Shown piece by piece: positions 10,477 through 30,451 of a stretch of DNA of 64,000 bases (position 1 is the first letter of the stretch; each line of letters opens with the position of its first letter). The stretch spans positions 13,998-77,997 of the forward strand of contig CAZPAF010000005.1 of the NCBI GenBank assembly GCA_964584475.1. Direction: 5' to 3'. This DNA comes from an uncultured Lachnospiraceae bacterium (GTDB taxonomy: Bacteria; Bacillota; Clostridia; TANB77; CAG-508). Under the pieces are notes generated by a model. It saw only the letters and a list, made by a program, of their open reading frames with translations, was not told the origin of the DNA and ran no database searches. Both the position numbers and the translations under genes were made by a program.

Positions 10477-10503
10477 AGTAATTATGCTTTGTTTACATAA
10501 ATA

Positions 10504-10532: not shown

Positions 10533-10589
10533 AAAAGATGTGTGAAAAAGAGAAAACTAAAGCAAAGAAATGATTATGAAAGGATTATT

Positions 10590-11390: not shown

Positions 11391-11407
11391 AAAAGGATGT
11401 TTAAAAT

Positions 11408-14218
11408 ATGGAAAGAAAAGTTCAAAGAATTAATATTGGGCAAGTTATAGCTTCACCAGTTTTAACTGGAACTAATGATCAATATATGTGGACAGGAATT
11501 GTAAGATCAGACGAAATTGATAAACATATAATTCCTGATGATAGACAAAGGGAAATCTTTGTAAAAAAGGTTAAAGAAATAGAACAAAAAGTTTTAAAAT
11601 ACAGAGGTATTTTTAGAACTTCTAATAGTGTACTAAAAATAAAAACTGATGAATCATTGGAGAATATTGAGAGGGATATATTAGAAGCTTGTAGAGAAAT
11701 AAAATCAATTATAAACAAACCAGATACCATAGGAATGGATATGGATTTATATTGGATTGCTTTATGTAGAGACTATGAAGAAATAAGACAAAAAAATCCA
11801 AATGAATTTTTAGCAATGAATAAAGATGCTAGAAAAAGCTTAGAAATCTTTAGAGAATATGTGAATAAAAATGATCCACCTGTTAGAGAAATGTATATTC
11901 CTGAAAAAAATAAATATGCTTGTGTTCAATTTTTAACTCGTGGACAAGAAGGCAAAATCCAAAAAGGAAAAGAAGGTAATATAGAAAGATTGCTAGGAGT
12001 TATTGAAAGTATTGCTGGTCAAAAAGATGTAGGTGGTATAGAAGGAACTGAAATTTTAAAAGAACTATGTGGAGCTCTTACATTAGCAGATTTACCTGTA
12101 ATTTTTCCAAGCAAAAAATATGCAGACATGCAATATATAACTGTATTTAAGAATTATTTAATTGGAAAAGGTTTTACATCAGAAGATATTGAAAGAATGT
12201 CTATTGAAGATATTGTTGAAGAAGCAATGAGAACTTATAACGAAGGAAGTTTTGAATTTCATTCAAGTTTAGTTGCAGATACAATTATAAATGGAATTAA
12301 TTATTTAGATTTAGAAAAAGTGATGTTACTTGCAGCAGCAAGACCATTAGAAGCCTATGAGCTAATGTCTCCAAAAGTTCAAAAAAATGAACAAGTAGAA
12401 TCTGAAATGGTTAAAATACTTTCTGAAAAAGAAGAAGAAGGTTTAGAAAAACTAGAATCATATCATGTAGAAGAAAGTCATTTATATGATGCAATTGAAA
12501 AAACAAGAAGAACAGAATTTATAGTTAGAAAAATTTTACAAAGTGGAATTATAGATAAAAGAACAAGAATAAAATTTATGTCAGGAGATGAAGAAAAAGA
12601 AATCTCTCTAAGAAGAATAGAAGAATTAATGCAAAACTTCTGTGATGGAGTATATTTATCTGATACAATGCAACTGGCTTTAGTATTTGATGCATATACA
12701 ACAGAAAATGCTATGCAAGAGCATTGGTCTGATGAATTAGTTAAAAGAATACGTATGTCAAATAATGATATGTATGTTTTATCTACAGTTAATTTCGAAA
12801 ATTTAAAAAGACTTTATTCACTAGGAAGAATGAATAAAGATCATATAGCAAATCTTGTTGCAGAAGCTTATAGTGGTGCTTTAGACGAAAATATTGAATT
12901 GACTTATGGAAATACAGAAGAACGTAAAAAAGAATTAATGAAACAAAATAATAGAAATCTTTTGAAAAATTTATATAATTCAAAAATTATTGATGAAAAA
13001 GATATAGCTAAATATTTTGATTTAGGAATAATATCAATTGAACAATTAGATACTTTAGAAGAAGATAAATCTCAAGAAGAAATAGATGCATTACAAAAAG
13101 CTTTAAAACAAGAATTTAATGATGACAGATTACTATTAAGCTATAAGAATTATATTGTTAAATATAATGAATTTGTAAAATTCCAAAAAGAACATCCAGA
13201 AGAAACAGAAAAAATAGAATCTCTAAGAGAAGAAGTAAATCATTTAAGAACAGAAAAAGAAAGATATAGACAAGTATTTAATAAATATAATAATATTCCA
13301 GAAACTGAAAAAGTAAGTTTTGGTGAAGATTTATTAGCAAAATATTATATTGAACTTGAAGTTTCAGAAGAAGATATGCAAGAATCAATAAAAGTACTAT
13401 ATGAAGATGGATTTATTAAATTAGAGAATATAATAAATATGGACAAACAAGAACAAAGATATTTGATTCCGATGTTAGACTCTTTAAGTATAGAAGATTC
13501 TGATATAGTAAGAAATAATATGACATTCGAAGAATTAACAAATATGATTGACAGTATATTTATTGATCCAAGCTTTAATGATGAAAGAAGATGGATTATT
13601 GTTATGAACTTACTTGGAGGAGAGACAGAAGAAGAGAAAAATGCAAGAGATGGATATTTAGAATTACTTGATTTTGATAATGAGACAGAAAGAAAAGCAA
13701 AATCAAAAGGAACAAGAAAAATTAAAAATCATGGTACTAAAGGAAATGATTCTGCTAAAAACATATATCCAGATACAGTAAAATGGAAATTTTATAGAGC
13801 TTTAGATAAAGACGCTAGAGTTACACGATATTCAAATGGATTTGTTGAATTTGCATCAAGCAGATTAGGAGTAAGAATTATTGAAAAATATTATGATGGA
13901 AATAGACCAGCATATGGTACTGCTACATATATTTTACCTGAAGATGAATACAGAAAAAATAATGGTGATTTGGTAACAATAATTCCAAATGGATTAATTC
14001 TTGAAAGTACAACTTTAAGAGAAATTACTCCAAGAAAAGATAGAATTGCACATATAACTAAAAGTGCAGATAAAACTTGGATGGACCAAATGGTAAGATA
14101 TTTTGGTATAGATTATGAAAGAGAAGAAGATTCAAGATATTCAAAACAAGAGTTAGAAGAATTGCAAGCTACAGTAAGTAAATATAAAACAAAATATGAT
14201 CCAGAAACTGAAAAATAA
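11408..14218 (+). CDS. Large (936 aa) hypothetical protein, predicted mostly helical and charged, with no motif I can recognise
   Basis: Long uninterrupted ORF, 17 nt after the previous gene. No Walker A, HExxH, nuclease or TM signatures seen. The C-terminal ~170 aa (YPDTVKWKFYRALDKDARVTRYSNGFVEFASSRLGVRIIEKYYDG...) look globular. Confidence 0.8.
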   Translation: MERKVQRINIGQVIASPVLTGTNDQYMWTGIVRSDEIDKHIIPDDRQREIFVKKVKEIEQKVLKYRGIFRTSNSVLKIKTDESLENIERDILEACREIKSIINKPDTIGMDMDLYWIALCRDYEEIRQKNPNEFLAMNKDARKSLEIFREYVNKNDPPVREMYIPEKNKYACVQFLTRGQEGKIQKGKEGNIERLLGVIESIAGQKDVGGIEGTEILKELCGALTLADLPVIFPSKKYADMQYITVFKNYLIGKGFTSEDIERMSIEDIVEEAMRTYNEGSFEFHSSLVADTIINGINYLDLEKVMLLAAARPLEAYELMSPKVQKNEQVESEMVKILSEKEEEGLEKLESYHVEESHLYDAIEKTRRTEFIVRKILQSGIIDKRTRIKFMSGDEEKEISLRRIEELMQNFCDGVYLSDTMQLALVFDAYTTENAMQEHWSDELVKRIRMSNNDMYVLSTVNFENLKRLYSLGRMNKDHIANLVAEAYSGALDENIELTYGNTEERKKELMKQNNRNLLKNLYNSKIIDEKDIAKYFDLGIISIEQLDTLEEDKSQEEIDALQKALKQEFNDDRLLLSYKNYIVKYNEFVKFQKEHPEETEKIESLREEVNHLRTEKERYRQVFNKYNNIPETEKVSFGEDLLAKYYIELEVSEEDMQESIKVLYEDGFIKLENIINMDKQEQRYLIPMLDSLSIEDSDIVRNNMTFEELTNMIDSIFIDPSFNDERRWIIVMNLLGGETEEEKNARDGYLELLDFDNETERKAKSKGTRKIKNHGTKGNDSAKNIYPDTVKWKFYRALDKDARVTRYSNGFVEFASSRLGVRIIEKYYDGNRPAYGTATYILPEDEYRKNNGDLVTIIPNGLILESTTLREITPRKDRIAHITKSADKTWMDQMVRYFGIDYEREEDSRYSKQELEELQATVSKYKTKYDPETEK

Positions 14219-17166: not shown

Positions 17167-18540
17167 ATGTTAAAAAAGAACGAAGAATATATTGTAGAAA
17201 TAATTGATAATGGTTTTCAAGGAGAAGGGATAGCTAAAATTGATGGAATGACTATCTTTATTCCTGGTGGCATAAAAGGAGAAAAAGTAAAAATAAAAAT
17301 ATTAAAAGTTACTTCAAAAATTGCCTATGGAAAAATAATAGATATATTAGAAAAATCTGAAAACAGAGTTGATGAGGTAGATTGCATGACATTTTCAAGA
17401 TGTGGTGGTTGCGCGCTTCGCCATGTTGATTATGATACTACATTAGAAATGAAAAAAGTAGCAGTTGAAACAACTTTAAGAAAAGCTTTAGGAAGAGAAA
17501 TAAAAGTTAGTGAAGTTTTAAAAATGGATAAGCCATACAATTATAGAAATAAGCTTCAATATCCAGTAGGAATTGATAATAATGGAAATTCTGTTATGGG
17601 AGTATTTGCAGAAAGAACACATTCAATAATTCCAACAAAAGAATGCAAAATTCAAGATGCTTTAAGTCAACAAATTGCAAATGATATATTTGACTTTATA
17701 GTAGAAAATAATATAAAAGTTTATGATGAGAAAAATCTTACTGGAAGTATTAGACATATTGTAATTAGAAGTGGTAAAAAAACAAATGAAGTAATGATTA
17801 CATTGGTTACTAATAATGAAAAGATTGAAAAAGAAGAGGAACTAGTAAATTACATAACTTCAAAATATCAAGAAATAAAAACAATAGTAAAAAATATAAA
17901 CAACAAAAATACAAATGTTATTTTAGGAAGAGAAAATGAAGTTTTATTTGGAGATGGATATATTTATGATTATTTAGGAGAATTTAAATTTAAAATTTCT
18001 CCAATGTCTTTTTATCAAGTAAATCCAATTCAAACAGAAAAACTTTATAGTAAAGCAGTAGAATATGCCGGTTTAACTGGAGAAGAAACAGTATTTGATT
18101 TATATTGTGGAATTGGTACAATAGGAATTTTTGCATCAAAAAATGTTAAAAAGTTATATGGAATAGAAACTGTTCCTGAAGCTATTGAAGATGCTATGCA
18201 AAATGCTAAAGCAAATAACTTAGATAATGCAGAATTTTTTGTTGGTGATGTAGAAAAAACATTACCTGAATTTATAAAGGAAAGAAATATAAGTCCTGAT
18301 GTTGTGTTTGTTGATCCACCTAGAAAAGGTTGTGATAAAACAGCTTTAGATACACTTCTTCAAATCAAACCCAAAAGAATTGTTTATGTGAGTTGTAATC
18401 CAGCAACACTTGCAAGAGATTTAAAAATATTAGAAGAAAAATATGATTTAAAGGAAGTATCAATTTGCGATATGTTCCCTTTTACACATCATGTGGAGAG
18501 TGTTGTGAAATTATATTTAAGAGAGGTTGTAGATGAATAA
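17167..18540 (+). CDS. rlmD: 23S rRNA (uracil-C5)-methyltransferase, RumA/RlmD family (TRAM domain, 4Fe-4S Cys cluster, SAM methyltransferase)
   Basis: TRAM-like N-terminus (GEGIAKIDGMTIFIPGGIKGEKVKIKI), CMTFSRCGGCALRH, FYQVNP, DLYCGIGTIG, VDPPRKG, YVSCNPATLARD. Confidence 0.9.
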   Translation: MLKKNEEYIVEIIDNGFQGEGIAKIDGMTIFIPGGIKGEKVKIKILKVTSKIAYGKIIDILEKSENRVDEVDCMTFSRCGGCALRHVDYDTTLEMKKVAVETTLRKALGREIKVSEVLKMDKPYNYRNKLQYPVGIDNNGNSVMGVFAERTHSIIPTKECKIQDALSQQIANDIFDFIVENNIKVYDEKNLTGSIRHIVIRSGKKTNEVMITLVTNNEKIEKEEELVNYITSKYQEIKTIVKNINNKNTNVILGRENEVLFGDGYIYDYLGEFKFKISPMSFYQVNPIQTEKLYSKAVEYAGLTGEETVFDLYCGIGTIGIFASKNVKKLYGIETVPEAIEDAMQNAKANNLDNAEFFVGDVEKTLPEFIKERNISPDVVFVDPPRKGCDKTALDTLLQIKPKRIVYVSCNPATLARDLKILEEKYDLKEVSICDMFPFTHHVESVVKLYLREVVDE

Positions 18541-20128
18541 ATCTGAAATTGAGGCAAGTATTAGAGAAAAATATGATGATGAATATACAATAAAAATGTT
18601 TACTAACTTTGCGCTTGAATTCCAAGAATGTTTTTCGGATATAATTAGAACTGAAGAATTAATTGAAAGAATAAAGAAAAACATTTTAGGAAATATTGTA
18701 ATTAGAGAAGAGTTTGAAAACAAGAATTTGGATGGTAGATATTCAAGAGATGGTTATATTCAACTAAAGAAATCTGTGACAGAAAATGAAAGCTATACTA
18801 AGTATCTTCTTTTTCATGAAATGCTTCATGCAATAACATCTGTAAGAGATGAAAATGGAAATGAAGTTATGATGGGATTCTCATACTTAGAAAATAGCTA
18901 TGGAATGGGATTAAATGAGGCAATGACAGAATACTTAACTCAAATTAGAAATGAGAAGTTTGAGCCTAATAGAGAAAATTTGATTTCAGGATATAGAACA
19001 ATTGTTGAACAAATAAGAAGATTGATTTTAATTATAGGAGATAAAGAATTAAAGCAAGCATATTTTTACAATCCTAACGAATTAAAAAATATATTAAGCA
19101 AAAATAATATGAATTATGATGAACTTGAATTGGCATATAGAGAATTAGCAGGAAAAGATCATGATATTAATGCTATGGCAAGTGGAATTAAATTAGAAAA
19201 TAATGAAAATTATACACTACATAGATTTTCAGAAATTATTTTTTCTAATTATGCAAAAGCGCTTGGAGAAGTAAAATCTTTAGATGATTTAAAAAGAAAA
19301 TATAAAGTTTTTCAAACTTATTTTGACGGAAAATACGATTGCATTGGTTCTATGTTTTTAACATATTATCAAAACATAGGAAAAGATATTGATATGTTAT
19401 TAAAGCAAAAAGTTCCTTTTAATGATATTAAAGAAACTTTGCAAGGTTTAAATCTAAATATTAATAATGTGGCTGCTTGGTATAATTTCTCCAAATGTTT
19501 AGTTAAAGATAAAAATGATTCGGCAGCTAAATTATATGAATTTTATAATAAAAATCCACAAGCATATTTTGGCATATTTGCTCAAAGCTATGGGATTTTA
19601 TATGATCATTTTTCTGAATGTGATTCTAATCCAGGAAATGATGGATTATATAATGGCTATAGATATCCAATGGTAGGATGGTTTGTAAAAGAACATCCAG
19701 AAATGGATTTTTCAGAAGTTTCTTTTGATATTATGGAAGAAAGACATTCGAAAAAAGTTATGTTTATATTTTCAACAGCTGACGGAAAAAAACATGCATA
19801 CACAACAGATGGAGAAAAAGCCAAAAGAATTTTTGAAGAAGATGGAAGCGAAAGTTTTGAATATACGGTTAATGATAAATGTAAAGGAAAATTAACCTAT
19901 AAAAAAGATGGAACTTTAGGCTATTCCTTTAATTCAAGCAGTGATTTTGATTTAAAAGAATTTATGAATCATTTAGATTTTAAAATTCAACATACTTACA
20001 GTGAGAAAGAAGATATTGAATATTGGATAAGTCAAGGTGGAGATAAAGAGGGATTTTATTCAAAAGCATTAGATAGAATAAATAAGAGAATTGAAACTAG
20101 AAGAGAAGTGGATTTTTTTGATGTTTAA
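18533..20128 (+). CDS. Hypothetical protein with a zincin-like HExxH motif (putative metallopeptidase-like domain plus an unknown C-terminal half)
   Basis: LLFHEMLHAITS is followed about 25 aa later by GLNEAMTEY, a gluzincin-like third-ligand context. The start overlaps the rlmD stop by 8 nt. Confidence 0.65.
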   Translation: MNKSEIEASIREKYDDEYTIKMFTNFALEFQECFSDIIRTEELIERIKKNILGNIVIREEFENKNLDGRYSRDGYIQLKKSVTENESYTKYLLFHEMLHAITSVRDENGNEVMMGFSYLENSYGMGLNEAMTEYLTQIRNEKFEPNRENLISGYRTIVEQIRRLILIIGDKELKQAYFYNPNELKNILSKNNMNYDELELAYRELAGKDHDINAMASGIKLENNENYTLHRFSEIIFSNYAKALGEVKSLDDLKRKYKVFQTYFDGKYDCIGSMFLTYYQNIGKDIDMLLKQKVPFNDIKETLQGLNLNINNVAAWYNFSKCLVKDKNDSAAKLYEFYNKNPQAYFGIFAQSYGILYDHFSECDSNPGNDGLYNGYRYPMVGWFVKEHPEMDFSEVSFDIMEERHSKKVMFIFSTADGKKHAYTTDGEKAKRIFEEDGSESFEYTVNDKCKGKLTYKKDGTLGYSFNSSSDFDLKEFMNHLDFKIQHTYSEKEDIEYWISQGGDKEGFYSKALDRINKRIETRREVDFFDV

Positions 20129-21298: not shown

Positions 21299-21351
21299 AT
21301 AAGTAACGGTTGAAAAACCAAATAACACGCCGGAAGGCAGGAGGAATGTTT

Positions 21352-22389
21352 ATGAAAGTACGGTTTGTGGTTATTTTTGCGATAATATTAATGGTCATTG
21401 GCATTATTGTTACATGCTGCAATCTCGCAAATACAACCCCGAGTTCGAACGAAGCAGAAATGCAAACATCGCAGACAGAGACAAACAAAGAAACGGAGGT
21501 AACAGAAACACCAGAGACAACCGGGGAACCGGAAAAAGAAGAAACGCAGGTACCTGAAACAACCGAGACTCCTGAGACAGAAGGTACGAAAGCACCAGAA
21601 ACAACGGAAAAGTCGGATAATGAAGGTACGAAAACACCAGAAACAACTGAAGACCCGAAAACCCAAGATCCCACTACTAGCAAAGACGAAGAAGGAGCTG
21701 CCGAAGAGCACATAACATTTGAGAGTGAATACATTTGCGATGATGGAGTTATGCCTTATGCATTGTTTACACCCTCAAGTATCAATGAAAGCGAAAAGAC
21801 TCCTCTGATCGTATGGCTTCATGGCTCTGGCGAAGTAGGCGTTGGTGAAAAGACATTTTTCAACAGCGGTCTGCTGAAAGTTATGAGCAAATGGAGACGG
21901 CAGGGATTCAACGCTTATGTGATTTGTCCTCATTTGACAGGAAACTTTAATACCGGAAGATGGAACAAAGAATCCACAAGAGATAATCTTAAGGCATTAC
22001 TGGATAAGTTTATTGCTGAACACAATATCGATGCAAATCGTATTATTGTAGTAGGACATAGTCTTGGTGGACAAGGAGCTCTCTATATGGCATCTGAACT
22101 TCCTGGATATTTTTCACGATGCGTCGTTTTGAGTGGTTATAATCCCGGGATTGATATCAAAGGGATTAAAATTCCGACAATTGGTTTTGTTGGAACTAAA
22201 AACGCTGGTGAAGACGAAGGAAGCATAAGCTATATGAAACAGTATTTCATGGAAGTTTTTGGTGATGAAAATACCTTCTTCTTTGAAACGTCTCATTCTG
22301 GAATTCCTAACGCAGTGTTCAATTTTGATACTGATGATGACGATAAGTCTGATTTGGTTGAGTGGATGCTTGGCGAATTCGAATTCTAA
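21352..22389 (+). CDS. Secreted or lipoprotein alpha/beta-hydrolase (esterase/carboxylesterase-like) with an acidic Thr/Glu/Pro repeat linker
   Basis: Likely start ATG 21352 (7 nt after AGGAGG). Signal MKVRFVVIFAIILMVIGIIVTCC, linker with PETT/ETTE repeats, LIVWLHGSGEVG, and the nucleophile elbow GHSLGG. GC-rich relative to its flanks. Confidence 0.75.
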   Translation: MKVRFVVIFAIILMVIGIIVTCCNLANTTPSSNEAEMQTSQTETNKETEVTETPETTGEPEKEETQVPETTETPETEGTKAPETTEKSDNEGTKTPETTEDPKTQDPTTSKDEEGAAEEHITFESEYICDDGVMPYALFTPSSINESEKTPLIVWLHGSGEVGVGEKTFFNSGLLKVMSKWRRQGFNAYVICPHLTGNFNTGRWNKESTRDNLKALLDKFIAEHNIDANRIIVVGHSLGGQGALYMASELPGYFSRCVVLSGYNPGIDIKGIKIPTIGFVGTKNAGEDEGSISYMKQYFMEVFGDENTFFFETSHSGIPNAVFNFDTDDDDKSDLVEWMLGEFEF

Positions 22390-22440: not shown

Positions 22441-22479
22441 GGCTCAGAGAATTTATTTCTCTGAGCCATCTCTTTTTTA
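22441..22479 (+). terminator. Intrinsic terminator of the esterase cassette
   Basis: GGCTCAGAGAA (22441-22451) pairs with TTCTCTGAGCC (22457-22467), with a T-run shortly after. Confidence 0.7.
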
Positions 22480-22511: not shown

Positions 22512-22540
22512 TTGAAAACAATAGATAATTATGATATATT
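22512..22540 (+). promoter_or_regulatory. Sigma-A-type promoter with extended -10 (TTGAAA-17 nt-TGaTATATT) of the polyamine operon
   Basis: TTGAAA 22512-22517 and TATATT 22535-22540, with TG at 22532-22533. Confidence 0.5.
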
Positions 22541-22569
22541 TATTTTGAAAATATTAAGGAGAAAGTAAT

Positions 22570-23022
22570 ATGAAAAATTTAATTAGTAATTTAAAAGAAA
22601 ATACAATTTTAATAATAAAAGATTTTGAATATGTAGTTAAAACAAAAACTTGGTATACTATAGAAGAAGATAAAAGTGCATCTTATATAAAATGTGAGTT
22701 AAATAACAATAAAGTTTTAGTTATTATTCCAGATGAGGAACTTATTTATATAGGTGAAGCGTTTGAGAATTTAAATTATGATAGAATTTCAGAAAATCAA
22801 ATAAAATATAAAGACATGATATTTACTAAAACAGGAGATGGACATCAAATTATTACTAATATTGAATTTGGTCAAGAAGATGAAGTAGAAGGAAAATGCA
22901 CATTTGAAGATTATGAATGTGAAAATAATATAATTAGCTTAGGAATCTTAACTGATAAAGATAACAAAATTGCAGATGTTTTTGCTGATATATTAGATTT
23001 AGATGAAATTAAAATTAAATAA
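22570..23022 (+). CDS. Small cytoplasmic protein, DUF4178-like (tentative)
   Basis: 150 aa. The pattern of two beta-rich halves (FEYVVKTKTWYTIEED...YIKCEL...VLVII ... IKYKDMIFTKTG...CTFEDYECENNIISLGI) fits my recollection of DUF4178. The genomic context with a GspS-family ligase supports the call. Confidence 0.5.
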   Translation: MKNLISNLKENTILIIKDFEYVVKTKTWYTIEEDKSASYIKCELNNNKVLVIIPDEELIYIGEAFENLNYDRISENQIKYKDMIFTKTGDGHQIITNIEFGQEDEVEGKCTFEDYECENNIISLGILTDKDNKIADVFADILDLDEIKIK

Positions 23023-23047
23023 GATGTAAAAAATAAAAGGAGAAAAA

Positions 23048-23908
23048 ATGTTAGGAATTATAATTGCAATAGTTTCTGCTATGTTTATGGCAGCAATGCA
23101 AATTTTATTAAAGAAAAGTTATAAAGAATTAGACCCATCTATTGCATTCTTTTTTGATGCAATGTTCGGAGTGTTAATTTGGATACCAGTAGGATTTATA
23201 TTTGGAGCAACAATTAAGGGAATTATTAATTGTTTAGTATATGCTATAATTTCTGCTATACTTTCTGAAGCATTAGTGTTTTATGCTTTATCAAAAGGAG
23301 ATTTAAGTATCTCAACTGTAATGATTGCGACTTATCCAATTTATACACTTCTATTTTCAAGATATATAAATAAAGAAATCCTATCTGGAGAACAATTAGT
23401 TTTTATAGTACTAACAATATTAGGAACTATTTTAACTTGTTTTGATAAAGATCTTAAAATAAAAAAATTAAAGAGTTTAACAATGCTGATTCCTATAATT
23501 ACAGCAGTAGCAATAGGACTATCAGATACTTTAACAAAAAAAGTAATAAATGAAACTTCTTCATTTAGTTTTTTAGTTGCGATTGCTATTGTACAAATCC
23601 CTGTGGCTTTAATATATTTAAAGATTGCAAAACAAAAATTCTCGAATATTTTTAAAGAACTAAAAATAGGGATGAAAGAATATAAATATTCGATTATTGG
23701 TTCTCTTTTAAATGTTTTAGGAACTGGATGTTTACTTGTGAGTTTTAATTATGGGATGGTATCAATTGTTTCTCCACTTACTGCAATATACACTCCAATA
23801 GTATTGATATATTCATTTATTTTTCTAAAAGAAAAAATAAACAAATTAAATTTTGCAGGAATTATTGCTGCTTTGATAGGTACATTTGGAATAATTATGC
23901 TTGGATAA
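23048..23908 (+). CDS. EamA/DMT-superfamily permease (10 TM)
   Basis: 286 aa with two repeated 5-TM EamA-like halves, very hydrophobic throughout. Confidence 0.8.
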   Translation: MLGIIIAIVSAMFMAAMQILLKKSYKELDPSIAFFFDAMFGVLIWIPVGFIFGATIKGIINCLVYAIISAILSEALVFYALSKGDLSISTVMIATYPIYTLLFSRYINKEILSGEQLVFIVLTILGTILTCFDKDLKIKKLKSLTMLIPIITAVAIGLSDTLTKKVINETSSFSFLVAIAIVQIPVALIYLKIAKQKFSNIFKELKIGMKEYKYSIIGSLLNVLGTGCLLVSFNYGMVSIVSPLTAIYTPIVLIYSFIFLKEKINKLNFAGIIAALIGTFGIIMLG

Positions 23909-23923
23909 ATAAAAGGAGAAATT

Positions 23924-25135
23924 ATGAAATTAGTTACTATACCAAAAGAAAAATATTATGAATATAGATTAGATGTTATGTTTGGTTGCTATAAATGGGA
24001 TCCACAATTTCTAGACAATAATACAATTGCTAAATATGCTTTAGTTATCTCAGAAGAAGAACATAAACAGTTAGAAGAATTAACAGAAAAAATAGATAAA
24101 GAAACAATTGAGGCTGAAGAATTTATAAACAAAAACTTAAAATTAGCAAAAACTTTAGCATTACCCAAAGAAATAACTAATGAATTAAAAAGAATGAAGA
24201 ATTATGATTCTGAAAAACACATTCGCTTAATGAGATATGATTTTCATCCAACTGAAGATGGAAAATGGGCAGTAAGTGAAGTAAATAGTGATGTGCCAGG
24301 TGGATTTGCTGAAAGTTCTTTAATGCCACAAGCTGCGATAAATGCTATAGAAAGTGAAAATTATTATTATAAAAACTTTGGCGAAATTTTAACAAATGCA
24401 ATTTCTAAAAAAATTGTTCTGGGTGGAAAAATAATGATGGTACATTGTACTTGCTATAGTGATGATAGACAAGTTATGCAATTTTTAGGTGATAAATTAA
24501 AATCTATGGGATTTAATATTATTTATGGTGCAGCAGATCACTTGAAATTTGAAAATAATATTGCCTATAGTCTATTAAGTGGAAATGAAGGAAAAGTAGA
24601 TGGAATTATACGATTTACACCACTTGAATGGTTAAAAGATATAAAACCTAAAACTTGGGATGGATATTTTGATACAATTACTCCATCATGTAACCACCCA
24701 GTTGCGATATTTGCACAAACAAAAAGATTTCCTCTTATTTGGGATGAATTAGAAAAAAATGGAATAAAACTAGAGACTTGGAGAAAATTACTTCCAGAAA
24801 CAATAGAAGTAAAAGATGCCAAAAATAAAGAAGGATTTATATTTAAGCCAGCATGTGGAAGAGTTGGAGAAAAAATTTCAATAAAAGAAGCGTGTAGAGA
24901 TAGTGAGTATGAAGAAATTTTAAAAGATGTAAAAAAACATCCAAAAGAATATTTAGCACAAAAGAAATTTGTTAGTAGGCCAGTGATAGATGAAGATGGA
25001 AACAAATTTCATGTTTGTTTAGGATCATATACAGTTGACGGGAAACATGGTGGATATTATGCAAGAATAGCAAATGCTCCACGTATTGATTCAAATGCAG
25101 CAGATATTCCTGTTTTAATAGAAAGGAACATGTAA
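23924..25135 (+). CDS. Glutathionylspermidine-synthase-family ATP-grasp ligase (YgiC/YjfC-like, no CHAP amidase domain)
   Basis: RLMRYDFHPTEDGKWAVSEVNSDVPGGFAESS, IIRFTPLEWL, HPVAIFAQTKRFPLIWDEL, FIFKPACGRVGEKISI and LGSYTVDGKHGGYYARI...IDSNAADIPVLIE align with GSP_synth family blocks. Confidence 0.8.
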   Translation: MKLVTIPKEKYYEYRLDVMFGCYKWDPQFLDNNTIAKYALVISEEEHKQLEELTEKIDKETIEAEEFINKNLKLAKTLALPKEITNELKRMKNYDSEKHIRLMRYDFHPTEDGKWAVSEVNSDVPGGFAESSLMPQAAINAIESENYYYKNFGEILTNAISKKIVLGGKIMMVHCTCYSDDRQVMQFLGDKLKSMGFNIIYGAADHLKFENNIAYSLLSGNEGKVDGIIRFTPLEWLKDIKPKTWDGYFDTITPSCNHPVAIFAQTKRFPLIWDELEKNGIKLETWRKLLPETIEVKDAKNKEGFIFKPACGRVGEKISIKEACRDSEYEEILKDVKKHPKEYLAQKKFVSRPVIDEDGNKFHVCLGSYTVDGKHGGYYARIANAPRIDSNAADIPVLIERNM

Positions 25136-25136
25136 T

Positions 25137-25787
25137 ATGACTGGAAAAGAAGTATATAAGATTTGGGCTCCTTTTGGCGCTAAATGGATTGACTGGGTAA
25201 GACCTGTTCCATTTGTACAAATTGATGATGAAGATTTTAAAATTTATAAAAATGAAAGTTTTAATATTCCTAAAATAAATTATATTAACGAATTAAAAGA
25301 AGACACAGCTATAATTGTAGACCTGCCAGAATATTATAGCATAAATGATGGAATTGCATTGAGTAAACTTGGATATAGACCAATTCCTGTATTTAATGGT
25401 ACAGCAGAGACTAAAGGGGCTAAAGCTACTGTAAATAATCATGCTGTAGAGTCTGGACTTATTTGGGGAGGAATTGAACTTCAAAATGTTGATTTAAAAC
25501 AAGATGCTCCACCAGTATTTTTAACTGATAGTAATCGTTTAAATAGATATAAATTAGATGTTTCTATTTTTGATAATAGTTGGGATTTATATCATCAAGA
25601 TTTGCCAAGTGCAGAATATTTTTTAGAAAATGGTATAAATAAAATTATAGTAAGAGGAAATAAATTTAATAAAGATTTAAATAAAATTTTATATAGACAT
25701 CAAGAAAAAGGAATGAAAATATATTTTACAGATGGATATGATGAACCTCAAGAAGTAAATTTAAAAAAAGTAAAAGATAAAAATTAA
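25137..25787 (+). CDS. Hypothetical protein (216 aa), translationally coupled to the ATP-grasp ligase
   Basis: The ATG overlaps the preceding stop region (TAATATG). No recognisable motif. Soluble. Confidence 0.7.
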   Translation: MTGKEVYKIWAPFGAKWIDWVRPVPFVQIDDEDFKIYKNESFNIPKINYINELKEDTAIIVDLPEYYSINDGIALSKLGYRPIPVFNGTAETKGAKATVNNHAVESGLIWGGIELQNVDLKQDAPPVFLTDSNRLNRYKLDVSIFDNSWDLYHQDLPSAEYFLENGINKIIVRGNKFNKDLNKILYRHQEKGMKIYFTDGYDEPQEVNLKKVKDKN

Positions 25788-25838
25788 AACTTGAAATTAA
25801 AAATAGATATCTTAATATTAAAGGGGACAAAAGAATTA

Positions 25839-27314
25839 ATGATAAAGTTTGACGGAAGAATAGTACAATTTGGTTTTGGTGCTGTTGGAAAAAGTTTTTA
25901 TGAAAAAATAAAAAAAGAAATTGAATTTAATGAAAATGAATATTTTGTTATAACAATGGACAAATTTGAATTTGAAGCTTTTGTTAATTTAGGAGGAATG
26001 GTAGCAAATTTTATTATTCAAGAAATAACAAAAGAAAATTTTAAAGAAGTTTTTGGTAAATATTTACATGAAGGTGATTTACTTATAGATTTTGCAGATA
26101 CAGTTGGAACAAAAGATATTCTTGACTGGTGTGCTCAAAACAATATAATGTATTTAAACACAGGAGAAGCAGATTGGCCTGAAAATTGGTATAGCATATT
26201 TAATGAAAATCTTCTAAAAAATGAAATAAGAAAAAAACATAGTGAAAATAATAAAACTAATAAATATCCAATTGTACTTCAACATGGAAATAACCCCGGG
26301 CTAGTTTCTCATTTTGTAAAAGCAGGAATTGAGCACATTGCAAAAACACAATGCAGAAAAGATAAAGAGTTAAAAAGGTTAATAAAGGAAAATCAATTTA
26401 ACAAAGCTGCTTTAAGATTAGGAATAAGACAAATACATGTAAATGATGTTGATCTTCAAGATGTTAAAAAAGAATTAGAAGATAAAGCTTTATATAGTAC
26501 TTGGTGCATAGATTCTTTCTTTTTTGAAATGTTAAGTGAGGCTACAATTAATTTTGGAGTTCACGAAAAAATTGATTTTAAAAGTGAAGAATGTAAATTA
26601 TTAGATTTTGAAAATGGTTTTTTAGAAATGAAAAATCTAGCGGCAGATACAAAATGCCGTACATATTATCCAGGAGGACAATTCGAAGGATATTTAGTAC
26701 CGCACGAAGAGATAATAACAATAGCAAAAGGATTAGAAGTAAAAGAGAATAACAAAACAATTTACAGACCTTCTGTTATGTTTTTATATTCACCATGTGA
26801 AGCTGCTAAAGAATATATTAAATACGCAAAAGTAAATGATTATTTAAATCCAGATCCTAATAAACCTCAAGACTGTGAAAAGGCAGAAGGGACCACTATT
26901 GTTAGAGGATATGTTTATCCTGAAAAAGCAGAAATTGTATATCAAGAAAAAATAAAATCTGGAACAGAATACGTTGGAGTATTATTGATAGGTGATAACT
27001 TTAATCCAGTTTGGGTTGGTAATAGAATAGAAATGCCTTATTTATATAAAAATAAAAAAGACTCGTATTGGCAAACACCAACAATTACTCCTGTTGCAAT
27101 GTCAGCTCTAGCTGCTACTTGTTGGATGATAAAAAACAAAGAAAAAGGCGGAATATATTTTCCTGATGATATAAGAGAATATAAAGAAATTATAAAAATT
27201 GCTGAAAAATATATTTCAAAAACAATTTATAAAACTTTTGATAAAAAAATAATAGAAGAAAATCTAGGATTAGATTTTTCAGATTCACAAATTAAAGATA
27301 TATTTGTAGATTGA
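25839..27314 (+). CDS. Homospermidine-synthase-like NAD-dependent enzyme (saccharopine dehydrogenase-like fold)
   Basis: Likely start ATG 25839 (MIKFDGRIVQFGFGAVGKSF) after AAAGGGGA. HGNNPGLVSHFVK, YSTWCIDSFF, YLVPHEEIITIA, IYRPSVMFLYSPCEAAKEY, YVGVLLIG and TPVAMSALAATCWMI parallel bacterial HSS blocks. Confidence 0.75.
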   Translation: MIKFDGRIVQFGFGAVGKSFYEKIKKEIEFNENEYFVITMDKFEFEAFVNLGGMVANFIIQEITKENFKEVFGKYLHEGDLLIDFADTVGTKDILDWCAQNNIMYLNTGEADWPENWYSIFNENLLKNEIRKKHSENNKTNKYPIVLQHGNNPGLVSHFVKAGIEHIAKTQCRKDKELKRLIKENQFNKAALRLGIRQIHVNDVDLQDVKKELEDKALYSTWCIDSFFFEMLSEATINFGVHEKIDFKSEECKLLDFENGFLEMKNLAADTKCRTYYPGGQFEGYLVPHEEIITIAKGLEVKENNKTIYRPSVMFLYSPCEAAKEYIKYAKVNDYLNPDPNKPQDCEKAEGTTIVRGYVYPEKAEIVYQEKIKSGTEYVGVLLIGDNFNPVWVGNRIEMPYLYKNKKDSYWQTPTITPVAMSALAATCWMIKNKEKGGIYFPDDIREYKEIIKIAEKYISKTIYKTFDKKIIEENLGLDFSDSQIKDIFVD

Positions 27315-27360
27315 TAAATAAGAAACAAATGTAAAAAGAAAAGAACTGAAAATGAAATTA

Positions 27361-27390
27361 AAAAGGAATGATTTAATCATTCCTTTTTAT
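27361..27390. terminator. Bidirectional intrinsic terminator between the polyamine operon and the convergent DUF2207 gene
   Basis: GGAATGA (27365-27371) pairs with TCATTCC (27377-27383), flanked by an A-run and a T-run. Confidence 0.65.
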
Positions 27391-27448: not shown

Positions 27449-29569
27449 TTAGTTACCACCGCCACCGCCGCCACCACCACGGCCTCCGCCACCATATCCG
27501 CCATATCCGCCAGAACGAGATATAGAAGAGGCTGAACGAACAGAACTTCTAAATGAACGACCATAGCTGCGGAAACTATGTGAACGATAATATGAATTTG
27601 ATAATATAGATGACTGAGCTTGAGTATCTAAATCTGGACATCTTATTTTTAAAGCTTTAATTACTTTTTCAGAAATACCAAATGCAGTAGCATATACTAA
27701 ATATTTTTCCCAAAGTGGTAATTCTACAACTGTACGTTCTTTCATAAGTGTTTCGCTATTTAAGAAATTATATAAACCTTTCCATTTAACATATTCATCT
27801 TCACCAAATTGTGTAAGTAATAAATATTTTTTTGATAAGTATTTATATATAAATGAACCGAATAGGAAAGTGGCACTTAAAACAAAAAATGCACCAAATG
27901 CTAAATCTAATCTTGTTTGATAAGATAGTAAATTTACAAGCAAAATAGCAATAGCTAAAATTCTATAAAGTCTCGATTTTGATTTTAATTTTTTCTCAGT
28001 TTCTCTATAATCAGCTTTTTGGAAATATCCTTCTGTAACTCCAATATCAACTACTGATTTTTCAATACTTGTAAGGAAAGATTCAGTGTTGTCATAGTCA
28101 GAAGAAACTTTGCTTTGGAATTTTGACATAGATATTTCAAAATTTGTAGCATGTCTTTTTAATAAATTTAAATAAAGTTCTTCAGATTTTGTAAGAGGTT
28201 CTCTGTCATCTTGCAAATCAGCTTCAATTGCGCTTATGTCTGCTTGTACAAAACGTAAATCTGGATGTAATCTAACAACTCTATTGTCTTTTATTATTAC
28301 TTTTGTGTTTGAATTATTCCAATCTTTAGCTTCATTAATTTTAACAAGTTCAATATAATCTTTTCTTGCTAAACTTAGTAATAAAGCAGAATAACCATCT
28401 TTGTTTGCATTTTTGATGTTATGTCTGCAGAAAACTAAATTTGAGGCAAATAAAGGATCTAAGTTACTAGGAATATCTCTAAAATAATCCATATCCATTG
28501 TTGGAGTATATATATTATATTTACTTTCTAAATCATCATCTGCTTTTAAAAATCTTTTTACTAATATAAATGAACAAATTAAACAGATTATTAATATCAT
28601 AAATTTTGTTTTTGCAAACTCAAATGGTTCTGTTTCATATTCTGTTTGTTCGTCTTTTAATTCTTGCAATACAGGATCTTCTGAATATAAATTGTTTGGA
28701 GCATATTCGGTGAAAATATGCTTATCATCTCCAAAAGATACTAAATCGAACTCTATGTATTCATTATATGGTCTAAATTTCAAATCAGATTTATCTAAAT
28801 CAAAAGAAAATGTATGATATCCAGGATTTATTGTTGTTGATTCAGTAAATTCAAATTCATTTGAATTTGTGCCAAAAGTATTTGCATAATAATTTCCTGC
28901 CTTTGGCATATCTTTTTCGGGAATTAGTATTTGTCCTTTAAAAGAATTCAAATAATTAACTGAATCTTCAGAAAACATACTAATATATAATTCTGAACAA
29001 TCTCCATAACGTAAAGCGGCATTATTCATTTCATATTCTATTTCATATACTGGTTTTTCTCTATATAAACCATCTACATAGAAAAATACACATTCATATT
29101 GTCTTCTAGCTTCATTATAAGGACCAGGACTATGGAACCATTTATTAGGACCAAATCCAGCTGAAGTTGATGAAGAAAGATAATCCTCGTCTTCCCAATA
29201 TAATCTAGAACTCTCTTCGAAAATTATATCATCTTTATTTTCAAATATTTGTTTAACAGATTTTACTTTATAATCAACTTTTAACCCATCAACTTTATCT
29301 TCGCAAAGATCTCTCCAAAGTTCCCAGAATAGATTGTCTCTAGAAGCAGCTCTAATGTCGAATGTTAATTTTTCTGTCACAAGTAATTTTCCACCATTTC
29401 CAGGTTCATCAACAAGTTCGGCCTTATAATCTACATCTGTTATTTTTGCATAATCCCAAGGAGTATTGATAGATTCCCAGTCTATTATTTCTCCAATCAT
29501 TACAATAAATGGTGAAGCAAAAATGAAAAACATAAATATCATATAAAGTTTTATGAAAAGTTTGTCCAT
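27449..29569 (-). CDS. DUF2207-family membrane protein with a C-terminal Gly-rich tail
   Basis: N-terminal TM, about 300-aa extracytoplasmic domain, internal TM helices, LPLWEKYLVYATAFGISEKV, and the tail SGGYGGYGGGGRGGGGGGGGN. Confidence 0.75.
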   Translation of the reverse strand: MDKLFIKLYMIFMFFIFASPFIVMIGEIIDWESINTPWDYAKITDVDYKAELVDEPGNGGKLLVTEKLTFDIRAASRDNLFWELWRDLCEDKVDGLKVDYKVKSVKQIFENKDDIIFEESSRLYWEDEDYLSSSTSAGFGPNKWFHSPGPYNEARRQYECVFFYVDGLYREKPVYEIEYEMNNAALRYGDCSELYISMFSEDSVNYLNSFKGQILIPEKDMPKAGNYYANTFGTNSNEFEFTESTTINPGYHTFSFDLDKSDLKFRPYNEYIEFDLVSFGDDKHIFTEYAPNNLYSEDPVLQELKDEQTEYETEPFEFAKTKFMILIICLICSFILVKRFLKADDDLESKYNIYTPTMDMDYFRDIPSNLDPLFASNLVFCRHNIKNANKDGYSALLLSLARKDYIELVKINEAKDWNNSNTKVIIKDNRVVRLHPDLRFVQADISAIEADLQDDREPLTKSEELYLNLLKRHATNFEISMSKFQSKVSSDYDNTESFLTSIEKSVVDIGVTEGYFQKADYRETEKKLKSKSRLYRILAIAILLVNLLSYQTRLDLAFGAFFVLSATFLFGSFIYKYLSKKYLLLTQFGEDEYVKWKGLYNFLNSETLMKERTVVELPLWEKYLVYATAFGISEKVIKALKIRCPDLDTQAQSSILSNSYYRSHSFRSYGRSFRSSVRSASSISRSGGYGGYGGGGRGGGGGGGGN

Positions 29570-29746: not shown

Positions 29747-30451
29747 ATGGAAAGAATTGATAAAATTATAGGAAATCAAACTGAATATTCTAGAAAAGAT
29801 GTTAAAAAGTTAGTTCTTCAAAAAAGAGTAAAAGTAAATGGAGAATTAGTTTTAAAATCAGATATAAAAATAAATCCAGATAAAGATTTGATTTCAATAG
29901 ATGGAAAAGACATTAATGTTACAGAAAAGATTTATTTGATTTTAAATAAACCACAAGGATATATTTCAGCGACAGAAGATAAATCTCAAAAAACAGTATT
30001 AGATTTAATTGATGAAAAATATTATCACAGAGAATTATTTCCAGCGGGTAGATTAGATAAAGATACAACTGGAATGATGATAATAACAGATGATGGACAA
30101 TTTGCTCATAATATATTAGCACCAAAAAAACATATTAGTAAAACATATGAAGTTGAAATTGATATACCAGTAACAGAAGAAATGAAGCTTGGCTTTGAAA
30201 AAGGTGTGAATTTAAATGATGGCGTTTGTAAAACTGCTAAATTAGAAATAACAGGAGAAAATACAGCGACAGTAGTTTTAACAGAAGGAAGATATCATCA
30301 AATAAAGAGAATGTTTGGATGTTTTGGAGCAAAGGTAACTAAACTTCATAGAACAGCAATGGGATTTTTAAAATTGCCTGAAGATTTAAAAGAAGGAGAA
30401 TCAAGAGAACTTTCAAAAGAAGAATTAGAATTATTAACAAGGAGAACATAA
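29747..30451 (+). CDS. rRNA pseudouridine synthase, RsuA/RluB family (S4 domain plus catalytic domain)
   Basis: The N-terminal region fits an S4 domain (RIDKIIGNQTEYSRKDVKKLVLQKRVKVNG); catalytic motif GRLDKDTTGMMIITDDG; and EGRYHQIKRMF. Confidence 0.85.
   Translation: MERIDKIIGNQTEYSRKDVKKLVLQKRVKVNGELVLKSDIKINPDKDLISIDGKDINVTEKIYLILNKPQGYISATEDKSQKTVLDLIDEKYYHRELFPAGRLDKDTTGMMIITDDGQFAHNILAPKKHISKTYEVEIDIPVTEEMKLGFEKGVNLNDGVCKTAKLEITGENTATVVLTEGRYHQIKRMFGCFGAKVTKLHRTAMGFLKLPEDLKEGESRELSKEELELLTRRT

Follow-up and report, generated by a model that had tools for sequence, protein, structure and literature searches.

A conserved gene module of gut Firmicutes that may conjugate polyamines to glycine-rich membrane-protein tails

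The window is a 64,000-nucleotide stretch of DNA from an uncultured Lachnospiraceae bacterium (contig CAZPAF010000005.1). Five ORFs follow each other on its + strand with gaps of 25, 15, 1, and 51 nt, and both the ORFs and their spacing were borne out as first described. They encode a 150-residue acidic cytoplasmic protein (ORF1, 22570–23022), a 286-residue EamA/DMT permease (ORF2, 23048–23908), a 403-residue stand-alone ATP-grasp amide ligase (ORF3, 23924–25135), a 216-residue alpha/beta domain protein (ORF4, 25137–25787), and a 491-residue NAD-dependent enzyme of the homospermidine synthase (HSS) clade (ORF5, 25839–27314). A terminator-like hairpin, scored on both strands at 22441–22467 (11-bp stem with 6 G-C pairs, then a T run), closes the upstream esterase gene and delimits the transcription unit on its 5′ side. 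The promoter-like sequence TTGAAA-17-(TG)TATATT of the original prediction was present at 22512–22540 on the + strand, matching the consensus at 10 of 12 positions plus the TG, and is followed by an AAGGAGA ribosome-binding site. Its statistical weight did not hold up: promoter-like sites numbered 55 in 8 kb versus 46.7 ± 6.9 in shuffled sequences, which is no enrichment, and chance alone would give as good a match in such AT-rich DNA (27% G+C). Its one support is its placement between the terminator and the ribosome-binding site. A scan of the five-ORF run found no terminator-like site inside it. The closing hairpin that had been proposed was scored on both strands at 27359–27389 (14-bp stem with 3 G-C pairs; T runs likewise on both strands), and is common to the + strand unit and a convergent gene on the – strand (27449–29569). 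The latter codes for a 706-residue DUF2207 membrane protein (PF20990 at 1.1e-33, PF09972 at 3.6e-09).

Gene order was compared across 80 species-level genomes of gut bacteria holding an ORF4 relative, which span Clostridia and Bacilli/Erysipelotrichales. The ligase gene was present in all 80 loci, standing directly 5′ of ORF4 in 78; the two were fused in three (L059, L060, L078), and also in the representatives P0242 and P0253. The HSS-like gene came next in order in 69 loci, adjoining the ligase–ORF4 pair, and was absent from about 11. The convergent DUF2207 gene, found in at least 64 loci plus three partial copies at contig ends, is the most conserved neighbor after these three genes, and LemA occurred in 28 loci. 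The genes flanking the module otherwise differed. ORF1 and the EamA permease were found in only two loci, each closely related to the window; therefore, the five-gene unit envisaged originally is not the conserved one. Three of the five ORFs are conserved together (HSS-like enzyme, ligase, and ORF4), and the real unit consists of these with DUF2207 and often LemA. The predicted coupling of an HSS-family enzyme to a GspS-family ligase was thus supported, while DUF2207, LemA, and the association of ORF4 with Gly-rich tails had been overlooked. The polyamine enzyme of the module is interchangeable, given the loci devoid of the HSS-like gene and the L094 locus, where the ORF4-like gene overlaps at its end with a spermidine synthase gene.

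ORF1 and ORF2 are lineage-specific accessories outside this module. ORF1 matched nothing in NCBIfam, nor in Pfam with the cut-off relaxed to E ≤ 10, no Pfam domain was precomputed for the 120 homologues listed of the 365 found, and its homologues elsewhere sit in unrelated gene contexts. Its assignment as a DUF4178-like protein is unsupported, since none of the tests run returned DUF4178. ORF2 is indeed a member of the EamA exporter family (PF00892 at 1.3e-26, in two stretches). Because the permease gene occurs in only two of the 80 loci, product export through EamA has no place in the conserved mechanism.

ORF3 belongs to the GspS/YgiC/YjfC superfamily. It scored 71.3 bits with the Pfam GSP_synth model (PF03738; cut-off 29.3 bits), and the Pfam scan detected no amidase (CHAP) domain, as anticipated. 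The AF2 model (pLDDT 80.6) retrieved E. coli GspS (TM 0.68, 7.5e-16), YjfC, and YgiC as the best Foldseek matches; trypanothione synthetase, glutathione synthetases, and the E-64 ligase Cp1B were the other structural relatives. The best match, the bifunctional glutathionylspermidine synthetase/amidase GspSA, joins a C-terminal glycine carboxylate, that of glutathione, to a polyamine amine. ORF3 differs from it in lacking the CHAP domain and in a profile-to-PDB E value of only 0.007, and the second domain of the fused ligase–ORF4 proteins is C-terminal and unrelated to CHAP. YgiC and YjfC, which are peptide–spermidine ligases, resemble ORF3 in being stand-alone GspS-type ATP-grasp enzymes of the same fold (TM 0.65–0.68) with no amidase domain, but their sequence identity to it is just 18–19% (19% for YgiC). 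Ligases adjoining distant ORF4 relatives reach 39–45%. The subfamily of ORF3 is divergent and occurs together with ORF4.

The start codon of ORF4 lies 1 nt past the ligase stop codon. Neither Pfam nor NCBIfam gave a match, and a Foldseek search of the PDB and BFVD with the AF2 model (pLDDT 89.3) returned nothing at E < 1e-3 (TM ≤ 0.33). ORF4 is the founding member of a large undescribed family (1037 representative clusters) that has no Pfam model. For distant ORF4-domain proteins, the same ligase subfamily was encoded directly 5′ in all seven assessable places. ORF4 identity was 34–41% in the same distant pairs that gave the ligase identities above, the two proteins diverging in step. ORF4 is an obligate partner of this ligase subfamily, as had been suspected of the motif-less ORF; what it contributes is considered below. 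A polar constellation is conserved (D62, N87-G88, R134, D146-N147, and W149). No Cys or His was invariant in the alignment of close homologues (A2), and the distant relatives P0264 and P0311 have Gly in place of Ser68.

Among solved structures, ORF5 matched homospermidine synthases only (best 4.7e-40). Like the enzymes of B. viridis, P. aeruginosa, and L. pneumophila (PDB 4PLP, 6Y87, and 2PH5), it contains the GxGxxG NAD motif and the equivalents of BvHSS N162, W229, E237, H296, and E298, all invariant in 66/66 family members; Y325 is also kept. The structural match bears out the HSS-like reading made at the outset. Unlike the bacterial HSS enzymes, the clade carries the substitutions E210D, Y323F, and D361E in 66/66 members, and ORF5 has an insertion near residues 330–360 relative to 2PH5. 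The three positions belong to the inner amino site and the substrate pocket of BvHSS, a deep and narrow cavity of approximately 21 Å (PMC4725965). The catalytic residues are retained, but the clade-wide pocket changes make the polyamine product uncertain. We found no characterized member of this Firmicutes clade in the papers searched.

The DUF2207 protein has four hydrophobic segments (residues 10–26, 321–337, 534–550, and 558–574). Its last 50 codons (27452–27601, – strand) encode an Arg/Ser/Tyr/Gly tail ending SGGYGGYGGGGRGGGGGGGGN, and the tail sequence ...GGGGRGGGGGGGGH is near-invariant across genera. The even number of segments and the flanking positive charges predict a cytoplasmic location for the tail. 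Asp and Glu are absent from the last 40 residues in 45/45 intact tails; therefore, the C-terminus is the only carboxyl there. ORF4-family members with no DUF2207 neighbor themselves include a transmembrane segment and a Gly-rich tail. The distant ORF4-domain proteins have either four transmembrane segments with a Gly/Tyr/Arg tail or a GGFG...G tail, and no DUF2207 gene was found near the four with enough flanking sequence. The last residue is Gly in 93 of 110 extended ORF4-domain proteins (85%) versus a background of 3%. The tail-less 216-residue class with a DUF2207 neighbor and the tailed class without one form complementary patterns.

Comparable tails accompany the known ligases. The proteins encoded directly 5′ of E. 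coli YgiC, E. coli YjfC, and the phage Motura GSS end in ...RGGFG...MGG, ...RGGYG...WGG, and ...RGGFG...AGG, respectively. The operon partners of YgiC and YjfC (ygiB-ygiC and yjfIJKLMC, with DUF1190, DUF350, DUF2491, and the PspA-like YjfJ) place these ligases, like ORF3, among membrane or envelope proteins, and DUF350 is common to the yjf operon and the distant ORF4 systems L095 and L101. In the module described here, an HSS-like enzyme and DUF2207/LemA take their place, no match to DUF1190, PspA-like proteins, or DUF2491 was obtained among the window proteins scanned, and hhalign revealed no similarity of ORF4 to YjfK or YjfM. The original prediction knew of no characterized precedent for the gene combination, but the pairing of an HSS homologue with a GspS-family ligase had already been noted as hss-gss clusters in beta-proteobacteria and Achromobacter phage Motura (Li et al. 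2023, PMC9992855). The Motura ligase, in contrast to ORF3, is a YjfC-type enzyme (40% identity to YjfC), and it is clustered with a DUF1190-like lipoprotein and DUF350 but with neither ORF4 nor DUF2207. The window HSS-like protein is just 24–25% identical to phage HSS proteins, and a tblastn search of 50,697 phage records with ORF4 found nothing.

Our best explanation, which we advance tentatively, is that the window encodes a polyamine-conjugation module conserved among gut Firmicutes, preceded in this lineage by the added ORF1 and EamA genes, and that the ligase and ORF4 amide-link a polyamine to the C-terminus of Gly-rich membrane-protein tails. By homology, ORF5 with bound NAD would condense diamines to a triamine, either homospermidine or, because three pocket residues differ clade-wide, a close analogue. 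ORF3, given its GspS-type fold, would activate a carboxylate as the acyl phosphate and amide-link it to a polyamine amine. ORF4, in keeping with its association with the ligase, most likely docks it onto the acyl substrate. The comparative patterns point away from a small thiol and toward a Gly/Arg/Tyr-rich cytoplasmic membrane-protein tail, whose free C-terminal carboxylate is the probable acyl substrate. The adjacent DUF2207 protein would supply this tail in the window, and the ORF4 protein itself would carry it in other lineages. Such a reaction would yield a membrane protein bearing a polycationic polyamine cap at its C-terminus.

Some findings speak against this reading of the tails. The final residue of the DUF2207 tail is not Gly but His in 44 of 62 family ORFs and Asn in the window, and the gene is convergent, not co-transcribed. 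E. coli YciQ, also a DUF2207 protein, has a Gly-rich tail and no adjacent ligase; such tails are a general DUF2207 feature. In the ORF4 class of approximately 250 residues, an Asp or Glu near the tail offers another possible carboxylate besides the C-terminal one. The analogy with E. coli is complicated by the DUF1190 proteins, for which export as lipoproteins is predicted. As for docking, the conserved polar residues of ORF4 could be catalytic instead.

An alternative, in line with the original prediction, is a small-molecule pathway in which homospermidine is joined to a low-molecular-weight carboxylate (a thiol, an amino acid, or a short peptide), ORF4 is auxiliary (e.g., an amidase or a carrier), EamA exports in this lineage, and DUF2207/LemA are only regulatory or envelope-stress neighbors. 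We consider this pathway unlikely. The structural relatives of ORF3 (GspS, trypanothione synthetase, the glutathione synthetases, and Cp1B) all act on small molecules, the permease gene lies 15 nt 5′ of the ligase in the window, the conserved polar residues of ORF4 are enzyme-like, and hss-gss clusters have been read as potential glutathionylhomospermidine producers (PMC9992855). The pathway nevertheless leaves the Gly-terminated ORF4 tails (93/110) and the complementary presence of DUF2207 unexplained, its exporter is confined to two of the 80 loci, and the module has no conserved neighbor that would synthesize a small acyl substrate. To our knowledge, most Clostridia lack glutathione, and this scarcity also counts against it.

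ORF4 might otherwise be a hydrolytic or regulatory counterpart, like the amidase half of GspS, with the Gly-rich tails acting as membrane anchors or low-complexity linkers unrelated to catalysis. The ligase–ORF4 fusions do mimic the two-domain architecture of GspS, Asp, Asn, Arg, and Trp are invariant in ORF4, and Gly-rich tails also occur in ligase-less DUF2207 proteins such as YciQ. We regard this role as quite improbable: with no invariant Cys or His and with Ser68 replaced, ORF4 shows no obvious conserved nucleophile, its only hydrolase-like structural matches were weak isochorismatase-like ones (TM ≤ 0.33, E > 0.03), and the terminal Gly of 85% of the extended members would go unexplained.

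A slim chance is left for the reverse order of steps, in which the ligase amidates the carboxylate with putrescine and the HSS-like enzyme then adds an aminobutyl group to the tethered putrescine, following the logic of deoxyhypusine formation with a non-homologous enzyme. The substitutions in the inner amino site and pocket are compatible with an altered acceptor (PMC4725965), and the absence of the HSS-like gene from about 11 loci is as expected of an optional elaboration step; however, a protein-tethered acceptor would be sterically demanding in the narrow BvHSS pocket (PMC4725965), and the catalytic residues of ORF5 match those used for free diamines. That the genes are mere neighbors with no shared pathway is hardly credible: DUF2207 lies on the opposite strand, and the locus can take in unrelated genes, as seen with ORF1 and EamA, but the order is kept across two Firmicutes classes with unrelated flanks, gene fusions exist, and the ligase and ORF4 diverge in parallel.

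If the ligase and ORF4 do join polyamines to Gly-rich membrane-protein tails, the module would provide a testable answer to the question of what GspS/YgiC/YjfC-class ligases act on.

The locus represents a variant of the GspS-family ligase systems that is widespread in gut Firmicutes and is characterised by a new partner domain and a distinct clade of homospermidine synthase (HSS). In the window, whose G+C content is 27%, five plus-strand genes follow one another: ORF1 (22570-23022), the permease gene ORF2 (23048-23908), the ligase gene ORF3 (23924-25135), ORF4 (25137-25787), and the HSS-like ORF5 (25839-27314). The original prediction of a closely spaced same-strand run was borne out in its coordinates and in gaps of 25, 15, 1, and 51 nt. 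Terminator-like hairpins were found at the end of the upstream esterase gene (22441-22467) and at the 3' end of the run (27359-27389, scored on both strands). Such sites are enriched in 8 kb (7 observed vs. 2.1 ± 1.6 in shuffles), and a scan within the five-gene run detected none, making co-transcription of all five genes plausible in this organism. The promoter-like sequence TTGAAA-17-(TG)TATATT is present 5' of ORF1 (22512-22540) and is followed by an AAGGAGA ribosome-binding site, although the match carries little weight, as 55 promoter-type sites were observed in 8 kb vs. 46.7 ± 6.9 in shuffled sequence. The single transcription unit envisaged earlier stands insofar as a hairpin closes the run and none interrupts it; the conserved unit, however, is smaller than five genes. 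ODC, ADC, agmatinase, and SpeE were sought in the flanks, where the ten neighbouring ORFs proved to be housekeeping or unknown. The upstream esterase/PHB-depolymerase-like protein (21310-22389, plus strand) has an N-terminal membrane anchor, followed by a long, repetitive Thr/Glu/Pro-rich linker (TETPETT...). Elsewhere in the window, the plus-strand ORFs at 11408-14218 (936 aa) and 18533-20128 (531 aa) had no Pfam match at E ≤ 1e-3. A 219-aa ORF in 5852-7162 (minus strand) is Mn-catalase/CotJC-like, as guessed from its start, and is preceded by two small, extremely Cys/Asn-rich ORFs, one with an N11 run, which look like spore-coat-type proteins.

A scan for ORF4 relatives in one genome per GTDB species found 151 loci, and the best 80 were analysed using tblastn with the window proteins and clustering of all ORFs. 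All of these 80 come from metagenome-assembled genomes of gut bacteria, either Clostridia (Lachnospiraceae, Oscillospiraceae, or unclassified) or Bacilli/Erysipelotrichales. Genera to which relatives have been assigned are Roseburia, Agathobacter, Acetatifactor, and Holdemania. The ligase gene was present in all of the best 80, lying immediately 5' of ORF4 in 78 and farther upstream in the loci L019 and L068; in L059, L060, and L078, ligase and ORF4 are fused into one reading frame of about 650 aa. An HSS-like gene lay 3' of ORF4 in 69/80, and a convergent DUF2207 gene was located downstream in 64/80, with three partial copies at contig ends. The DUF2207 gene of the window (27449-29569, minus strand) had been overlooked. 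Among the loci with enough downstream sequence, DUF2207 was clearly missing only in L031, which has a LacI-family gene instead, and its status was uncertain in L041 and L075. In L075, an IS605/TnpB-like (transposase-like) ORF (10301-11443) lies downstream of the HSS-like gene, at the expected DUF2207 place. A LemA-like gene occurred in 28 of the best 80 loci, and about 11 of them kept ligase, ORF4, and DUF2207 without the HSS-like gene. Apart from these families and the window-nearest L001, L029, and L034, the flanks were unrelated between loci. The neighbourhoods point to a consistent link between the system and Gly-tailed membrane proteins. Two copies of the system occur in L068 (Acetatifactor sp.), one arranged as ligase-ORF4-DUF2207 and the other as ORF4-HSS-LemA...DUF2207, and both DUF2207 copies have a GGGGRGGGGGGGGH tail.

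ORF1 and the EamA gene accompany this core in 2 of the best 80 of 151 loci, L001 and L034, the closest relatives of the window. Elsewhere, ORF1 homologues adjoin APH-type kinases, or Vut_1 and PHO4 transporters. The proposed five-gene operon therefore resolves into a lineage-specific accessory pair beside a conserved core; the survey does not uphold the five genes as a unit, and EamA-mediated export of a conjugate likewise falls outside the core. ORF2 is an EamA/DMT permease (PF00892, 1.3e-26), with two matching stretches representing the two EamA repeats. ORF1 showed no Pfam or NCBIfam match, and even at E ≤ 10 Pfam gave only a chance aldolase match; 365 homologues were found, and 0 of the 120 listed contained a Pfam domain. 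Its assignment as DUF4178-like is unsupported, since sequence-to-Pfam searches did not match PF13785.

ORF3 matched Pfam GSP_synth (PF03738) over residues 38-389 with 71.3 bits (curated cut-off 29.3; E 1.1e-19). Whereas the bifunctional glutathionylspermidine synthetase GspSA carries an N-terminal CHAP amidase domain, Pfam and NCBIfam detected none in ORF3 (403 aa), which matched in the synthetase region alone. Sequence and profile searches were weak: phmmer yielded no PDB match, and the family profile reached GspS and YgiC at E values of about 0.007-0.017 only. The assignment was settled by a Foldseek comparison of the AlphaFold (AF2) model (pLDDT 80.6), in which E. coli GspS was the best match (2IO8; TM 0.68, E 7.5e-16). 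YjfC (7UK6; TM 0.66) and YgiC (7UK8; TM 0.68) were also matched, and Cp1B, trypanothione synthetase, and eukaryotic glutathione synthetases came next. ORF3 is 19% identical to YgiC. Its ATP-grasp blocks R-x-D-F, E-x-N-x-D, and K-P-x-x-G-R-x-G align with GspS and YgiC, and R104, D106, E119, N121, D123, K308, G312, and R313 of the ligase are invariant in the family alignments. By its modelled fold, ORF3 is a divergent stand-alone ATP-grasp ligase of the GspS/YgiC/YjfC type, as had been proposed, including the missing amidase half. The adjacent HSS-like or SpeE genes provide a context in which a polyamine fits as its amine substrate.

ORF4 had no Pfam or NCBIfam match, in Pfam even at E ≤ 10. Its AlphaFold model, which is confident (pLDDT 89.3, pTM 0.88), shows a Rossmann-like alpha/beta domain, for which Foldseek found nothing at E < 1e-3 in the PDB and BFVD. 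Matches to Dot1, zeta-toxin, isochorismatase, E1, and SLOG-like proteins were too weak to interpret (TM ≤ 0.33). A relationship to YjfK (DUF2491) or YjfM (DUF1190) was rejected (hhalign probability < 1%), and tblastn against phage genomes gave no match. When 1.84 billion representative proteins were searched with a profile, 1037 clusters were obtained at E ≤ 1e-3, so the family is large, and it has no existing model. Size classes were described from the best 150 of the 1037 representatives. Members of 200-235 aa resemble the window protein and have a Lys-rich stretch at the end, those of about 250 aa have a conserved ...GL(R/K)RN(S/A)AGGFG...G tail, and in those of 395-600 aa, the ORF4 domain is accompanied by hydrophobic segments, usually four, and by a Gly/Tyr/Arg tail whose last residues are GG. 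Among these best 150, members of at least 236 aa terminate in Gly in 93/110 cases and in GG in 38/110, against a background of 3% terminal Gly among ORFs in the loci. Two representatives (P0242 and P0253) are ligase-ORF4 fusions.

Distant ORF4 relatives had a GSP_synth ligase gene directly upstream in every assessable case (L091, L095, L097, L098/L099, L100, and L101). These ligases are 39-45% identical to that of the window and the ORF4 domains 34-41% identical to ORF4, indicating that the two co-diverge. The predicted role of the 216-aa protein as ligase partner gains from this recurrence of the same ligase subfamily at distant loci, from the fusions, and from the adjacency in 78 of the best 80 of 151 loci. 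In L095 and L101, the gene in front of the ligase encodes a membrane protein of the DUF350 (YjfL) family, a connection between the Firmicute systems and the YjfL member of the E. coli yjfC operon. In the class of about 250 aa, the module reads DUF350-ligase-ORF4, and a LURP-one-related (LOR) protein follows in L101 (7722-8246). The end of the ORF4-like gene in L094 overlaps with a gene for spermidine synthase. With HSS-like, SpeE, or neither at different loci, the polyamine enzyme appears interchangeable or dispensable, which fits a polyamine as ligase substrate. Four distant loci have sufficient flanking sequence to look for a DUF2207 gene, and it was found in 0/4. Judged from the sequences, the Gly-rich tail is carried either by the ORF4 protein or by an adjacent DUF2207 protein.

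In Pfam, ORF5 matched generic Sacchrp_dh domains only. All 14 distinct PDB sequences at E ≤ 0.01 were HSS (best 2PH5, 4.7e-40), so that its solved relatives on this list place it with HSS, as predicted, and not nearer the saccharopine/lysine enzymes. Its identity with the phage HSS proteins of phiRSL1 and Motura is 24-25%. The residues of 66 clade members were mapped onto Blastochloris viridis HSS (BvHSS) via HMMER alignments, with residue roles from Krossa et al. (PMC4725965). Window residues G12, G14, G17 (GxGxxG), N152, W222, E230, H289, and E291, which correspond to the NAD-binding GxGxxG and the catalytic N162, W229, E237, H296, and E298 of BvHSS, were invariant in 66/66, as was the equivalent of Y325. 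E210, which binds the inner amino group in BvHSS, Y323, and D361 have been described as highly conserved substrate-pocket residues of bacterial HSS (PMC4725965). In the ORF5 clade, they are replaced by Asp, Phe, and Glu, respectively (D203, F315, and E377 of the window protein), each in 66/66. According to the alignments, the changes are conservative but fixed, and the HSS catalytic machinery is present. Homospermidine would be the default product, but the three fixed pocket changes mean that the actual one may differ.

The DUF2207 protein of the window matched both PF09972 and PF20990 and has a Gly-rich C-terminal tail (...SRSGGYGGYGGGGRGGGGGGGGN). Its four hydrophobic segments (residues 10-26, 321-337, 534-550, and 558-574), flanked by Lys/Arg on the sides predicted to be cytoplasmic, suggest that the last 130 residues are cytoplasmic. 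Across genera, the tail (...YGGGGRGGGGGGGGH) is almost invariant. Deviating ORFs with ...GGGGGRRRSL... in place of ...GGGGGGGGH were seen in L002, L005-L011, L014, L016, L017, L047, L050, and L057; the probable explanation is a frameshift within the poly-Gly (GGN)n run, introduced by an error of sequencing or assembly, and automatic annotation will therefore misreport DUF2207 tails. Over the final 40 residues, none of the 45 intact tails (45/45) contains Asp or Glu, which leaves the C-terminal alpha-carboxylate as the sole carboxyl group in this stretch. An RsuA/RluB-type pseudouridine synthase gene (29747-30451) is divergent from the adjoining DUF2207 gene; this pairing, also seen in E. coli yciQ-rluB (L082:6747-9728), L029, and L034, may be a coincidence.

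In the GspS reaction, spermidine is linked to the glycine carboxylate of glutathione. YgiC and YjfC of E. coli, described as being without GspS activity, are called 'peptide-spermidine ligases', also in RefSeq. YgiB (L081:2745-3416), encoded directly upstream of YgiC, ends in ...TRGGFGES...SSRSMGG, and the DUF1190 protein YjfM (L083:6388-7026), encoded directly upstream of YjfC, ends in ...SRGGYGRSSSARGHWGG. Clustering of hss and gss has been reported for beta-proteobacteria and phage Motura, and glutathionylhomospermidine was suggested (Li et al. 2023, PMC9992855). In Motura, the gene between hss and gss (L102:6318-6701) encodes a DUF1190-like lipoprotein ending in ...VRGGFGSTGSSFSAGG; the gss is YjfC-type (40% identical to YjfC), and a DUF350 gene follows. 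A Gly-terminated RGG(F/Y)G-type tail beside a GspS-family ligase thus recurs in three otherwise different systems, which suggests that the proteins with RGG(F/Y)G...GG-COOH tails upstream of YgiC, YjfC, and Motura GSS are their peptide substrates. In operons of the yjfC/ygiC type, the ligase gene is immediately preceded by one for a DUF1190 lipoprotein, and DUF350, DUF2491, and PspA may also be present; a Pfam scan of 17 window proteins matched none of these four families. Ravi et al. 2024 described proteobacterial ATP-grasp/DUF350/DUF1190/DUF2491 neighbourhoods and a separate DUF4178 neighbourhood; LemA and DUF2207 are not mentioned there. Our literature search on DUF2207 and DUF1190/YgiB/YjfM found no link to polyamine ligation or tail modification.

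From these results, we tentatively favor, at slightly under even confidence, a mechanism in which the ligase and ORF4 join a polyamine to the C-terminus of a Gly-rich tail. ORF5, by its homology, would make a triamine, and ORF3, whose fold we compared, would form an amide between a carboxylate and this triamine, as expected from its family. ORF4, consistently associated with ORF3, is its obligate partner and would have a docking role. The carboxylate would be that at the C-terminus of a Gly-rich tail lying in the cytoplasm, in the window the DUF2207 tail. This choice of acyl substrate draws on the statistics of the tails, on their complementary distribution, and on the parallels in E. coli and phage. 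Several observations speak against tail modification: the DUF2207 tail terminates in His or Asn, not Gly; its convergent gene is outside the module transcript; the DUF1190 proteins are predicted to be exported; and E. coli YciQ, a DUF2207 protein, has a similar tail (...GGGAGGGAGGGGGGGW) although no ligase is encoded nearby. The main rival is the small-molecule conjugate of the original prediction, which accounts for the EamA gene in the window lineage but leaves the tails and the DUF2207 linkage unexplained; we regard it as unlikely. ORF4 might use its conserved polar residues for catalysis, a further point against tail modification; ORF4 as an amidase or regulator seems quite improbable. Slightly less probable still is that the HSS-like enzyme acts after ligation. 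The original observation was largely right and its interpretation partly so.

Polyamine ligation to a tail C-terminus can be extended to a joint reading, which we consider possible but doubtful. Stand-alone GspS-family ligases, YgiC and YjfC included, might be protein C-terminal polyamine ligases whose acyl substrates are neighbour-encoded Gly-rich tails, with ORF4 as the Firmicute docking domain. The tails would then be those of DUF1190 proteins in proteobacteria and phage, and those of ORF4-TM-tail proteins or DUF2207 in Firmicutes. If true, this would amount to C-terminal polyamination of ribosomally made proteins, to our knowledge not a known post-translational modification in bacteria. 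Neighbour-encoded Gly-rich C-termini offer a peptide-testable substrate hypothesis for amidase-less GspS homologues, among them YgiC, YjfC, and the products of the thousands of genes that carry the annotation 'glutathionylspermidine synthase family', and bring the YgiC/YjfC substrate question to experiment at the peptide level. The locus is of greater interest than one orphan operon would be. It defines a large family of partner domains for which no model exists (at least 1000 clusters at 50% identity), shows that common gut Firmicutes (Lachnospiraceae, Oscillospiraceae, and Erysipelotrichales) have an HSS-clade enzyme whose pocket is distinct, and provides the first lead to the function of the DUF2207/LemA membrane proteins, which are widespread.
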